Source: an uncultured Opitutales bacterium (GTDB taxonomy: Bacteria > Verrucomicrobiota > Verrucomicrobiia > Opitutales > UBA2995). Taken from it: a stretch of 64,000 bases of DNA. Positions 1,786 through 23,656 of this stretch are shown here, piece by piece (position 1 is the stretch's first letter; every line of letters starts with the position of its first letter). The DNA lies in contig CALJGU010000153.1 of the NCBI GenBank assembly GCA_938075565.1, positions 1,890 through 65,889 on the forward strand, read 5' to 3'. The translations under genes and the position numbers were made by a program. The notes beneath the pieces were generated by a model. It was given only the letters and a program-made list of their open reading frames with translations, was not told the DNA's origin and searched no databases.

Positions 1786-3921
1786 CTACTTCAGTGAACT
1801 AAGCACATTATGGATGAGCTTCAACCCCAGGTGCCCTCTTAATGTAAGAATCGACTCCGGGTGAAATTGGACCGCTGCGTAGGGCAGCTCCTTGTGCTGA
1901 ATCGCCATGATGGTTCCGTCTTCCGTTTCGGCCGTTACCTCCAGGCAATCAGGAAGTGCATCCCTGTCTGCATAAATAGAGTGATAGCGACCAGCTCGGA
2001 AGGATTCTGGAAAACCGTCAAAGACTCCGCTCTGGCGATTAGTCACATCGGACGGCTTTCCATGCATGGGATAATCCAGCAATTTCAACTCTCCACCGAA
2101 TGCCTGTACCATCCCTTGCAATCCCAGACAGACTCCGAAGCAAGGAATACCTTTGTCTATGCAGTACTGCACCACCGTGGGCACATTGAACTCCTCCGGT
2201 GTTCCCGGTCCTGGTGAAATGAAAACAAGGTCCGGGTTGAACTCGTCGATCTTCTCGAGCGGGAATCCTGCCCGAATCGTAATCACCTCGGCCTGAGCCT
2301 GACGAAAATAATTTGCTAGGGTATGCACAAAAGAATCCTGGTTATCCACGAAGAAAACACGCGGTCTGAAACCGTCGCGATGAGGCACCTGGAATCCAAG
2401 GTCCTTGGTTCGAGTTTTGCCTGCGAGAACATCTAGAAAGGCTGCTGCCTTGGTTCGACATTCACGCTCTTCTGCTTCAGGACCCGAATCGCAAAGCAAG
2501 GTCGCCCCGACGCGAAACTTTGCCAACCCGTCTTTCAAATGAATGGTTCGAATGGTGATGCCAGTATTCATATCGCCATTGAATCCGATGAACCCAACCG
2601 CACCTCCGTACCATTCACGGGGTGAGTTTTCCAGATCCTCAATCATCTGCATAGCAGCTGGTTTGGGAGCTCCTGTTAAAGTGCAGGCCCACATATGAGA
2701 GAGGAGGGCATCGAACGCATCATAGTCGTCCAGTAACTCACCATCAACATGATCCACGGTATGGAACAAGCGTGAGTAAGCTTCGATGAGTCGGCGCCCC
2801 ACAACTTGGACTGAGCCCGGTTTACAAACGCGGGATTTGTCATTGCGATCAACATCCGTGCACATCGTAAGTTCGGCTTCGTCCTTCTTCGAGGTCATCA
2901 GCTCAAGGATGCGTTCCGCATCTTCGATGGCATCGTTTCCACGGGGAACCGTTCCTGAAATCGGGCAGGTTTCAACTCGACTACCGCGCACTCGAACGAA
3001 CATTTCTGGAGACGCACCTACCAGTTGCTCATTTCCTAAGTTGATAAGAAACTCATAGGGGCTCGGGTTCACCTTGCGAATCTTGTCAAACAGCTCCCGG
3101 GGTGTGTCCAAACAACCTGACGTAAACACCTGACTCAGTACGACCTCAAAGAAGTCACCTTTCTTGGTTCCTTCGATGATCTTATCTACTTTCTCAGCAT
3201 ATTCACCTGGGTCGTTGTCGCTTTCGATTTCCTTGGATTGTCTTTCTGGAAGAGGAAAATGTTTCCCGGTCCTTTCCAATCCTTGGGTATTTTGAGTGCC
3301 CATGTGGAAGTCATAGTTTCTCACCTCAGCGGTTTCCTTGCGGTGATCTACTATAAATAGTTGGTCAGGCAGAAACAGGTGAGCGTCCGCATAGTTGTCC
3401 GGCCGCTCGTGCCTGAGATCAATCGGTTCAAACTGAAAAACCAAGTCGTAGCCAAACGATCCAAAGAAACCGATATACGGATCCTGATCAGATCCGAAGA
3501 AACTCCGGATCGAACGCAGCATGGAGAATAGCCCCGGTTGCTTGCTTCTCTCTTCCTCCGGAAAATACTCCGGCATTGGAACCAGCTCACCGGTAATAGA
3601 TTCAGAACCTGCATTCATTGATTCAATGTAGTCCTGACCTTCTATGGCCTGCTGAATCATGGGAAGAATACATTTGCCCCGTTCATTGAGCGCATTGATC
3701 TCAAACTTTCGGTGTCTTCCTATAATTTCAAGGGGTGGTCGGATGAATCCAATATCCCAACGGCTATACCGACCCGGGTATTCGTAGCCGCTGCAAAACA
3801 GGGCTCCCTGGTTGTGGTCAATGGCATCAAACGCATCGTTCAGCGCCTCAGAATAGGGAGTGGATTCAACCTCGCAAATGACGGTCGCTCCTCCTGGGGT
3901 TCGGTATTCGATCTTAGACAT
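1786..3921 (-). CDS. trpE: Bifunctional anthranilate synthase TrpE(G): component I fused to glutamine amidotransferase
   Basis: SGYEYPGRYSRWD, GDFFEVV, NPSPY, GASPE, CPISGT, TGAPK, WYGG, IRT chorismate-binding motifs, then GATase motifs VDNQDSFVH, SPGPG, GVCLG, HGK, QFHPES. Confidence 0.95.
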   Translation of the reverse strand: MSKIEYRTPGGATVICEVESTPYSEALNDAFDAIDHNQGALFCSGYEYPGRYSRWDIGFIRPPLEIIGRHRKFEINALNERGKCILPMIQQAIEGQDYIESMNAGSESITGELVPMPEYFPEEERSKQPGLFSMLRSIRSFFGSDQDPYIGFFGSFGYDLVFQFEPIDLRHERPDNYADAHLFLPDQLFIVDHRKETAEVRNYDFHMGTQNTQGLERTGKHFPLPERQSKEIESDNDPGEYAEKVDKIIEGTKKGDFFEVVLSQVFTSGCLDTPRELFDKIRKVNPSPYEFLINLGNEQLVGASPEMFVRVRGSRVETCPISGTVPRGNDAIEDAERILELMTSKKDEAELTMCTDVDRNDKSRVCKPGSVQVVGRRLIEAYSRLFHTVDHVDGELLDDYDAFDALLSHMWACTLTGAPKPAAMQMIEDLENSPREWYGGAVGFIGFNGDMNTGITIRTIHLKDGLAKFRVGATLLCDSGPEAEERECRTKAAAFLDVLAGKTRTKDLGFQVPHRDGFRPRVFFVDNQDSFVHTLANYFRQAQAEVITIRAGFPLEKIDEFNPDLVFISPGPGTPEEFNVPTVVQYCIDKGIPCFGVCLGLQGMVQAFGGELKLLDYPMHGKPSDVTNRQSGVFDGFPESFRAGRYHSIYADRDALPDCLEVTAETEDGTIMAIQHKELPYAAVQFHPESILTLRGHLGLKLIHNVLSSLK

Positions 3922-3970
3922 TAGAATTAAAGGGCTGTATGGTTATGGGTGAAATTTGAAATTGGAAAAT

Positions 3971-4001
3971 AAAAAAAGCCGTGGACTTAAGACCACGGCT
4001 T
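3971..4001 (-). terminator. Second (distal) intrinsic terminator of the trp leader
   Basis: mRNA sense AAGCCGUGG-UCUUAAGU-CCACGGCUU followed by a U-tract (UUUUUAUUUU). Confidence 0.85.
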
Positions 4002-4008
4002 GGAAAAT

Positions 4009-4040
4009 AAAAAACGCGGTCCGTGACAAAGGAACCGCGC
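4009..4040 (-). terminator. First (proximal) attenuator terminator of the trp leader
   Basis: mRNA sense CGCGGU-U-CC-UUUGUCAC-GG-ACCGCG followed by UUUUUUAUUUU. Confidence 0.8.
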
Positions 4041-4064
4041 AAAGAATAAGTGTAATGAACGGTC

Positions 4065-4169
4065 CTAATTAATAGACCACCACCAACTTTTGCTCATTGC
4101 GAAGCAGGAAACCACCAGAGCGAAAACCGCTTTGGGTGCTGTGCTGGAATGAATCTGCTGATGTTTCAT
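4065..4169 (-). CDS. trpL: trp attenuator leader peptide, MKHQQIHSSTAPKAVFALVVSCFAMSKSWWWSIN (34 aa; alternative start at 4097 gives MSKSWWWSIN)
   Basis: Translated by hand: GGAGAG Shine-Dalgarno before ATG 4169, TGG TGG TGG at 4085-4077, TAG at 4067-4065; lies directly upstream of terminators and trpE(G). Confidence 0.9.
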   Translation of the reverse strand: MKHQQIHSSTAPKAVFALVVSCFAMSKSWWWSIN

Positions 4170-4419
4170 GCTCTCCGTTTTCCGCCTCTAATACCTGATT
4201 GTCAAGCCCGGAGCTTTCGGTTGTGACCGGTATTCAGTAGAGTAGAACAGGCATCTTGCCTGCATATTTCCTTAAGCAATTGGCTTCGCTGCGACCCTGA
4301 AGGTTTTCCAATTTGTTCGATTACAAGCTCTTATACTCCTTGCGCCTTTTTGCCATTTGTACATTTGCGTTGATTTTATAGCAACAACTTGGCTTAAAGA
4401 ACCAGCTCAATTCTAATAT

Positions 4420-5148
4420 ATGCTCCCCGCGCAACCTAATCGTAGTTTAATGGACGGCATTCGTTGCCTCCAAATTTTGTCGACCAACCCAGGCCCGATC
4501 GGAGCCCGTGAGCTTGCCCGTCGATTGGACATGGAGACCACTCGGGCCCATCGCTTGCTTAAGACCCTCGCCCACATGGGCATGGCCCGGCAGAATCGGA
4601 ACGCTAAATACATGCCAGGTCCTGCCATGCACGTGCTTGCAGCTCAGAGCTTATATGCCTCGGGTCTGATTGGAAATTCGACCAAGCCACTGCGTGAACT
4701 TCATCGCAAGGTGGGCCTCATTACCGCTTTCGGTATGCTCTGGGAACGGAATGTTTATTTTCTCTACCACCTCATGCCCGGCATGTCCGCGGAAGAAGCG
4801 GTAGGACGTATGCGTTTGCAGCCGGCAACCCAATCTGGAATCGGTATGATGATTTTGTCCAAGAAAACTGATGATGAGGTGCGGGAGCTCTACGAGGGCG
4901 TAGATGATATTCCTTCTTATATGGGAGGAGTGGAAATGGTGATCGAGGACCTTCACCGAATCCGCAAATTAGGTTACGCCTTTGTGGAAACCCATTCAGA
5001 TACCGCTGAAGTCTCACTCGCAGCCATGTGCCCAAATAGCCTATACACCAGTGTTGCGGTTGCCGGTTCATTCGATGAATCAAGAATTCCCGAACTCAAA
5101 GCCGGCATCGACCAAGCATTAGAAGAGATCTTTCCGGAAGCACCGTAA
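4420..5148 (+). CDS. IclR family transcriptional regulator
   Basis: N-terminal HTH (NRSLMDGIRCLQIL...ELARRLDMETTRAHRLLKTL...GMARQ) and C-terminal effector domain (TQSGIGMMIL, IRKLGYA). Confidence 0.9.
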   Translation: MLPAQPNRSLMDGIRCLQILSTNPGPIGARELARRLDMETTRAHRLLKTLAHMGMARQNRNAKYMPGPAMHVLAAQSLYASGLIGNSTKPLRELHRKVGLITAFGMLWERNVYFLYHLMPGMSAEEAVGRMRLQPATQSGIGMMILSKKTDDEVRELYEGVDDIPSYMGGVEMVIEDLHRIRKLGYAFVETHSDTAEVSLAAMCPNSLYTSVAVAGSFDESRIPELKAGIDQALEEIFPEAP

Positions 5149-23624: not shown

Positions 23625-23656
23625 AAAAAAAACGCGGACCCGTAGGACCGCGTTTT
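23625..23656 (-). terminator. Intrinsic terminator after accB-accC-asp23
   Basis: mRNA sense AAAACGCGG-U-CC-UACG-GG-U-CCGCG-UUUUUUUU. Confidence 0.8.

Follow-up and report, generated by a model that had tools for sequence, protein, structure and literature searches.

A probable tryptophan attenuator with one leader open reading frame and two terminators in series upstream of a verrucomicrobial trpE(G)

The trpL leaders of Escherichia coli and Salmonella combine tandem tryptophan (Trp) codons, a stop codon next to segment 2, the pairings 1:2, 2:3 and 3:4, a hairpin with a U-tract and regulation by ribosome position. The his leader of Salmonella and E. coli is a six-segment domino, in which A:B, C:D and E:F stand against B:C and D:E and stalling blocks the last hairpin; its middle hairpin, C:D, is without a U-tract and relays only, and the full segment chain A-F was reportedly set out by Johnston et al. 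in 1980. The E-F terminator of this leader has been described (PMC11805395). A stalling leader peptide with two adjacent Rho-independent terminators is described for erm(K) of Bacillus licheniformis in the passage of PMC4335068 that cites Kwak et al. 1991, and some Gammaproteobacteria carry a second terminator in tandem in the rimP-leader (PMC2965389). Double T-boxes make two serial termination decisions with one sensor each (PMC9413887), mgtCBR has tandem attenuators in one 5' leader (PMC3641672), and the leader RNA and peptide released from trpL of Sinorhizobium meliloti (rnTrpL and peTrpL) work in trans (PMC7298713). Ribosome-mediated attenuation is a textbook mechanism known almost wholly from Proteobacteria, Actinobacteria and a few Firmicutes; in 2010 reports of leader peptides were confined to the first two phyla, which Firmicutes had just joined (PMC2965389). 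Here we describe an element of ~210 nt on the minus strand of a 64,000-nucleotide stretch of DNA from an uncultured Opitutales bacterium (contig CALJGU010000153.1 of assembly GCA_938075565.1, the window in what follows), which is probably a Trp-sensing ribosome-mediated attenuator of trpE(G), with one leader open reading frame (ORF), two terminators in series and a chain of six RNA segments.

The regulated gene is monocistronic and encodes 711 aa (1786..3921, minus strand); Pfam detects Chorismate_bind (4e-67), GATase (6e-49) and Anth_synt_I_N in it, and since Chorismate_bind and GATase lie in one ORF, the product is a fused anthranilate synthase, TrpE(G). The leader ORF upstream of it, on the minus strand like all segments below, has 34 codons (4065..4169, MKHQQIHSSTAPKAVFALVVSCFAMSKSWWWSIN and stop) and ends in WWWSIN, with three tandem Trp codons (UGG-UGG-UGG, 4077..4085) that form the sensor as read from the sequence. 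The last Trp and Ser codons make up segment 1 (GGUGGUCU, 4074..4081), which thus overlaps the Trp codons, and the core of segment 2 (GGACCGUU, 4058..4065) adjoins the UAG stop codon, so that a ribosome at UAG would cover it. In its full form segment 2 (UAGGACCGUUCA, 4056..4067) takes in the stop codon, and its partner is either segment 1 or segment 3. Segment 3 (GCGCGGUUCC, 4031..4040), assigned from sequence and RNAalifold, is the 5' arm of the first terminator, T1, and is shared by 2:3 and T1. Segment 4 (GGACCGCG, 4015..4022), nearly identical in sequence to segment 2, is the 3' arm of T1 and, by pairing energies and covariation, also the partner of segment 5. T1 itself spans 4040-4004, with the hairpin GCGCGGUUCC/GGACCGCG (4040-4015), the U-tract UUUUUUAUUUU (4004..4014) and a predicted 3' end at ~4008-4006. 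The stem of the second terminator, T2 (4001-3964), begins 2 nt after this U-tract and about 12 nt after the T1 stem; its hairpin AAGCCGUGG/CCACGGCUU (4001-3976) is followed by the U-tract UUUUUAUUUUCC (U7AUUUU, 3964..3975), with a predicted 3' end at ~3971-3968. Segment 5 (AAGCCGUGGUCU, 3990..4001) comprises the 5' arm of T2 and its first loop bases, as indicated by sequence and loop conservation, and segment 6 (CCACGGCUU, 3976..3984) is the 3' arm, in a hairpin for which a terminator scan was also positive.

These elements had been proposed in a first-pass annotation, and a sequence check confirmed their positions on the minus strand, including the WWW leader with segment 2 at its stop codon and the hairpins 3:4 and 5:6 with U-tracts, predicted terminators that RNAalifold recovers; the 4:5 helix had been given as 8 bp with two G-U pairs, and is exactly that. 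The isolated hairpins have energies of -6.5 (1:2), -14.0 (3:4), -10.3 (4:5) and -15.9 kcal/mol (5:6). The annotation had also drawn 2:3 as a helix of 6 bp, and that pairing is real and conserved, but in this minimal form it amounts to only -4.6 kcal/mol; it was rejected as the antiterminator in favour of an extended helix (-9.6 to -11 kcal/mol), which in its natural form in the window has -9.6 kcal/mol and in most relatives -9 to -14 kcal/mol. A tandem-Trp ORF therefore precedes a biosynthetic gene, with terminators in between and a mutually exclusive 2:3 pairing predicted from ribosome position, and we have little doubt that the element is a Trp leader-peptide attenuator. Both hairpins are predicted from the sequence to terminate transcription, and termination is expected to depend on Trp. 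Two other reading frames were considered and rejected. A 42-aa ORF starting with TTG (4042-3914) runs across T1 and T2, and its frame is not conserved, as U-tract lengths differ among lineages; an internal AUG/GUG at codon 25 of the leader ORF was tried as the true start, but two of the lineages compared below, L083 and L084, have AUA or GUA there, and it is the 34-codon frame that is conserved.

In the mechanism that we propose, when Trp is plentiful the ribosome would reach UAG and cover segment 2, or 1:2 would form, as it would if the leader were untranslated; 3:4 would then fold and most polymerases would stop at T1. In any transcript that leaked past T1, segment 4 would be locked in 3:4 and segment 5 would be free, so that 5:6 would fold and transcription would stop at T2. 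When Trp is scarce, a ribosome stalled on UGG-UGG-UGG would mask segment 1, 2:3 would pair and T1 would be blocked; the freed segment 4 would capture the emerging segment 5 (CGUGGUC) before segment 6 is made, T2 would be disabled as well and trpE(G) would be transcribed. Since segment 4 would be free only under a stalled ribosome, T2 would remove the unlicensed leak and spare licensed read-through, and because it would act on that leak only, repression would be multiplied at little cost to induced expression.

We compared the upstream regions of trpE(G) orthologues with 76-94% identity, from which alignment A2 of 12 leader-bearing lineages was made; P0003, P0004, P0015 and P0017 were left out of the leader comparison. 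The layout of leader, T1 and T2 is present in all 12 lineages, which are distinct members of one Opitutales-like clade with TrpE(G) roughly 80-94% identical to that of the window. The leader ORF has 34 codons in 11 of the 12 (33 in L086) despite strong sequence divergence, its regulatory codons read WWW, WWR or WRW, and the stop codon touching segment 2 and the U-tracts of T1 and T2 are shared throughout; T1 carries an unbroken run of 6-7 U in 11 of the 12, and in L086 the run is interrupted (UUUCUUUUU). More distant members of the clade (76-79% identity), L001/L089, L087 and L088, which are four loci of three lineages, are without the leader ORF and without both terminators, so that the attenuator was gained or lost within the clade; in L087 and L088 a CTTGAC box stands directly before trpE(G). 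Four trpE leaders of Bacteroidota (L005, L007, L050 and L056) have WWW/WW mini-ORFs, for example MITKQNIWWWNSLNQ and MNWWWTMNLIGFRGLN, with a single strong terminator ~55 nt past the stop codon, and look like classical one-terminator Trp attenuators. Seen against these, the double terminator of the 12 lineages is a conserved trait of the clade, neither a generic feature nor a chance occurrence in a single genome. Contigs from DNA metagenomes, taken at 80% likeness, yielded identical sequence only.

Run unguided on the 12 sequences, RNAalifold recovers exactly 1:2, 3:4 and 5:6. In the state made of these three helices, pairing is intact in 97.4% of cells and both partners have changed at 6 pairs (1.6 +/- 1.0 in shuffles); shifting the partner by 1-3 columns lowers pairing to 31-56%. 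Within it, 1:2 is 97.9% paired with two-sided changes at 3 pairs, and pairing in 5:6 is complete (100%), 2 of its pairs carrying two-sided changes; in the WWR lineages the third UGG has become CGG alongside a change from GGACCGUU to GGGCCGCU, so that 1:2 is preserved. The alternative state, 2:3 with 4:5, is 92.3% paired and has 4 two-sided pairs against 1.3 in shuffles, and its 2:3 helix is 93% paired with one two-sided change. The his-type set of pairings, with 1:2, 3:4 and 5:6 on one side and 2:3 and 4:5 on the other, is thus conserved in full.

The helix that would link the two terminators, 4:5, is by itself 91.7% paired; its 3 two-sided changes exceed the 0.8 +/- 0.6 expected and are reached in 1 of 500 shuffles, and its pairing collapses once the partner is slid by 1-3 columns. 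The duplex consists of CGUGG, which is also part of the T2 stem, followed by UC, the first bases of the T2 loop. This U and C (A2 columns 122-123) are conserved in 11 of 12 (0.92) and 10 of 12 lineages (0.83), respectively, whereas the other loop columns (124-127 and 129) are 42-58% conserved; T2 itself needs neither base, and pairing with the GA of segment 4 would explain their conservation. In L085, segment 4 carries the substitutions A>G and C>U, with matching changes in segment 3 (one), segment 5 (both) and segment 6 (one), and 3:4, 4:5 and 5:6 all remain paired in the same register. When segments were swapped, segment 4 of L085 paired with its own segment 5 at -10.9 kcal/mol and with those of the others at -4.8 to -6.7 kcal/mol, and the reciprocal holds. 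As a control for chance, segment 4 was paired with 180 unrelated 5' arms from terminator-like hairpins; some 1-3% of them equalled the T2 arm. The first-pass annotation had named covariation in related genomes as a check on 4:5; the helix is conserved and shows compensatory changes, those coming from L085 only.

Whether 4:5 could hold T2 off for long enough was addressed with folding barriers, calculated with ViennaRNA findpath over direct paths, masking the stretch that a ribosome stalled at the Trp codons would occupy; these values are estimates only. The authentic E. coli trp leader (100% identity checked) was put through the same procedure as a control. The barrier from 2:3 to 3:4 is 10.1 kcal/mol in the window and 5.8 kcal/mol in E. 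coli trp. With 2:3 present and segment 5 emerged, 4:5 forms over a barrier of 4.4 kcal/mol, and conversion of 2:3+4:5 into 2:3+5:6 then has to pass 14.1 kcal/mol, compared with 2.9 kcal/mol for 5:6 with a free segment 5. Crude as this measure is, it is internally controlled, and by it 4:5 would hold off T2 no less well than the antiterminator of E. coli holds off its own terminator. At equilibrium 3:4+5:6 is always lowest (-29.6 kcal/mol), as it is in every attenuator, so timing decides the outcome. The domino that had been suggested for this leader thus finds support in a 4:5 helix that is conserved, covaries and raises the barrier to T2, while as a design the domino itself is the textbook one of the his leader.

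A number of observations weigh against this relay. Its dependence on kinetics is covered here by direct-path barrier estimates only, and the metatranscriptome contigs that cover the locus (trpE(G) up to 3910, and leader pieces at 4062-4199, 4052-4155, 3961-4147 and 3950-4080) are assembled, neither mark 3' ends nor come from defined growth conditions, and may include DNA. Conservation fails at the outermost 4:5 pair, which is unpaired in 6 of the 12 lineages, and since two-sided 4:5 changes are limited to L085, they count as a single event in evolution. L085 also has a weak 2:3 antiterminator (-4.3 kcal/mol, and -4.7 kcal/mol as a duplex), and its T1 and T2 are alike (CGCGA...UCGCG in both), so that concerted evolution could mimic covariation. 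The two terminators have a CGYGG:CCRCG core in common and end in the same tail, UUUUUUAUUUUCC(AA), which makes it probable that T2 arose long ago as a duplicate of T1 and has since diverged; segments 4 and 5 would then owe some of their complementarity to descent. Finally, of the states available before segment 6 is made, 3:4+2:5 (-21.5 kcal/mol) is the most stable and about equal to 2:3+4:5 (-19.9 kcal/mol), which leads to the alternative that T2 is antiterminated directly by segment 2, its free UAGGACCG pairing long-range with CGUGGUCUUA and enclosing T1 whether or not 3:4 has re-formed. A fold of this type is the unconstrained minimum free energy structure at that length in the window and in 6 other lineages, it has a barrier to T2 of 11.5 kcal/mol and it would outlast a later switch from 2:3 to 3:4; in L083, L085 and L086, 2:5 is as strong as or stronger than 4:5. 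Conversely, the 4:5 duplex is the stronger one in 10 of the 12 lineages and, unlike 2:5, it covaries: 2:5 is 86.9% paired, a level reached by 295 of 500 shuffles, and its covariation score is under the shuffled mean. The 2:5 pairing also closes a loop of ~65 nt, and from 2:3+4:5 it can be reached only over a barrier of 17 kcal/mol. We infer that the T2 antiterminator is 4:5 rather than 2:5 and consider direct action of segment 2 on T2 unlikely; that segment 4 specifically is what sequesters segment 5 we would put at close to even. Both pairings give the same logic, in which T2 is off only while the GGACCG strand is free, i.e. while the ribosome is stalled, and we hold with moderate confidence that T2 is co-regulated through sequestration of segment 5.

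The shared core of T1 and T2 and their nearly identical tail UUUUUUAUUUUCCAA are also what would be expected if T2 were a back-up terminator under no regulation, or a duplicate of T1 in decay, with T1 alone controlled and 4:5 left over from the duplication, since segment 5 resembles segment 3 and would be complementary to segment 4 by descent. The restriction of 4:5 covariation to one lineage fits such an origin, as does the T2 of L002, whose U-tract is down to five U. A constitutive terminator of this strength (-15.9 kcal/mol, 7 U) before an essential biosynthetic gene would, however, cap induced expression, and T2 is kept in 12 of 12 lineages while spacer, loops and flanks have diverged freely; its compensatory changes in 5:6 show it to be under selection, and the two loop bases needed solely for 4:5 or 2:5 are conserved, which makes an uncontrolled T2 quite improbable. 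The same loop bases have another potential reading, in which T2 senses a second, independent signal, with a protein, small RNA or tRNA acting on the conserved GGUC loop or on the spacer, as in a two-input leader of the tandem riboswitch or T-box kind. These loop bases and the conserved spacer motif CACUUAUUCUU are without a proven partner, and a divergent IclR-type regulator is syntenic, but neither a second ORF nor an element of aptamer size lies in the roughly 12 nt between the two stems, Rfam gives no match at a threshold as loose as E<=10 and pairing with GGACC fully explains the loop bases; we consider this very improbable. A chance arrangement or annotation artefact with no regulatory function is hardly credible: TGGTGGTGG on its own is not rare (2 found against 0.5 expected), but the element lies directly upstream of trpE(G), and its ORF, the length of that ORF, five helices and two U-tracts are conserved in 12 lineages with compensatory changes. 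With this comparative support, the relay through 2:3 and 4:5 is plausible as a whole.

We also considered a broader interpretation of the relay, in which the leader is a licensing or proofreading device belonging to a distinct and more elaborate class of attenuator in Verrucomicrobiota, with a possibly leaderless 34-codon leader and a hairpin, P0, inside it. On this interpretation the decision at T2 falls ~37 nt later than that at T1, so the stall would have to persist and brief, noisy ribosome pauses would be filtered out. We regard this as speculative and rather doubtful. The abundant terminated leader RNA or the peptide might, by analogy with the rhizobial rnTrpL/peTrpL, act in trans.

Compared with trpL of E. 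coli and Salmonella, with which it shares the general plan, the element has no sequence similarity, a leader of 34 codons instead of 14, P0 inside the ORF, a second terminator with the 4:5 link, a monocistronic fused trpE(G) downstream and a Verrucomicrobium as host. The Rfam family Trp_leader (RF00513) gave no match at the gathering score, nor at E<=10 on 3880-4420, and no other Rfam family matched, the sub-threshold matches being generic hairpin-plus-U; the element works like Trp_leader but is not a member of that family. With the his leader it shares the six-segment domino, and it departs from a pure relay of the his type in that a run of 6-7 U makes its middle hairpin, 3:4, a predicted terminator in its own right. 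The combination of a leader peptide and two adjacent terminators is that of ermK as PMC4335068 describes it, in which macrolides stall the ribosome on a specific nascent peptide and the gene confers resistance, in contrast to the Trp codons and anthranilate synthase found here, and the sequences are unrelated. The present leader is one ORF that serves both terminators, so it has no sensor of its own for each terminator as tandem riboswitches, T-boxes and mgtCBR do, which it resembles in having two serial termination decisions in one 5' leader, an arrangement that sharpens or tightens the response. The ermK leader is also much longer, at 357 nt. The rimP-leader differs in having no leader peptide, and neither it nor ermK is an amino-acid leader-peptide attenuator. 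The first-pass annotation had taken classical attenuators to have one terminator, and this holds for amino-acid operons but not for ermK with its two adjacent ones, as given in PMC4335068; the six-segment domino (his) and the double terminator (ermK) are thus both already known. In S. meliloti, too, a leader-peptide attenuator stands before a fused monocistronic trpE(G), in another phylum and with no detectable sequence relationship. That attenuator has a 14-aa leader and one terminator. The trans functions described in S. meliloti provide, by analogy, a lead for the P0 hairpin and the 34-aa peptide here. Our literature search found no report of ribosome-mediated attenuation in Verrucomicrobia or Verrucomicrobiota, and no direct report of tandem or two terminators with a leader peptide, the ermK and rimP precedents having come up indirectly.

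The P0 hairpin lies at 4092..4154 on the minus strand, with arms at 4154-4141 and 4107-4092 and an inner stem at 4131-4119, and its 3' end is 6 nt ahead of the first UGG. RNAalifold on nine leaders gave 23 pairs, 9 of them with two-sided changes. One compensatory change, CAU>UAU with AUG>AUA, replaces His by Tyr and Met by Ile, and as both encoded residues are replaced in such cases, selection seems to act on the RNA, not the peptide; P0 accounts for the conserved 'HSS...CFAM' residues of the leader. It is predicted that P0 may serve as an RNA polymerase pause or synchronisation hairpin. The spacer motif CACUUAUUCUU between segments 2 and 3 (4042..4052, minus strand) is conserved in most lineages of A2; a pairing partner was looked for and none was found, and a role as polymerase pause signal is a guess. 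Upstream of the leader ORF, a -35-like box CTTGACA (4200..4206, minus strand) keeps a constant spacing of ~36 nt to the ATG of the leader in 11 lineages, and a -10-like box GAAAAC (4177..4182, minus strand; consensus GAwAAn) follows 17 nt after TTGACA and 7 nt before the ATG in most lineages. With the spacing CTTGACA-N17-GAwAAn-N7-ATG, which 11 lineages keep, the mRNA of the leader would be leaderless or almost so. A contig from an RNA run, 4062-4199, conflicts with a transcription start site at 4169, unless it derives from DNA or from an antisense transcript. No conserved Shine-Dalgarno sequence was found before the leader ORF or before trpE(G) in the compared lineages.

The ATG of trpE(G) lies 42 nt past the T2 tail on the minus strand, and ~15-20 nt before this start is a motif, CAUACAGCCC (3930-3945, minus strand), that is kept in most lineages. 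In L002 (Verrucomicrobia MAG KW1-S08_24, a metagenome-assembled genome), ~390 nt (2575-2965) are inserted between T2 and the CAUACAGCCC/ATG region. L082 and L074 are near-identical metagenomic variants; in L082, segment 4 has the change G>A and segment 5 the change C>U; T1 is weakened by a C-A mismatch and T2 by a U-G pair, and 4:5 is strengthened, a G-U pair becoming A-U, so that L082 could be a natural de-repressed allele. Elsewhere in the window, a terminator-like hairpin at 23633-23652 on the minus strand (CGCGGUCC-UACG-GGUCCGCG, then a U-run) has arms closely like those of T1 and would pair with segment 4 better than T2 does (-16.7 kcal/mol); it may represent a terminator motif shared across the genome.

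The host is a marine Verrucomicrobium, and the locus turns up in many marine and seawater metagenomes; in reference genomes the nearest TrpE(G) proteins are from an Opitutales metagenome-assembled genome (79%) and a Verrucomicrobia one (88%). The trpE(G) orthologues have the same DUF420 gene downstream, and the IclR and OsmC neighbours upstream are common to most orthologue loci, not all. Just upstream of the divergent IclR-family gene (4420-5148, plus strand) is a palindrome, GTTGCTATAAAATCAAC (4369-4385), which is found in 13 of the collected loci and in a single copy within the window, and which probably serves that gene as its operator or promoter.

At ~210 nt the element is a small, clean and mutable test system, and it includes P0 as a conserved structured element within the leader ORF. 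If true, the relay principle would help to explain the large dynamic range and low noise of attenuators and could be copied into synthetic terminator switches. For these Verrucomicrobiota, the two terminators controlled from one leader ORF would, if the mechanism holds, be an RNA-only means to multiply repression of trpE(G) without lowering its induced expression.

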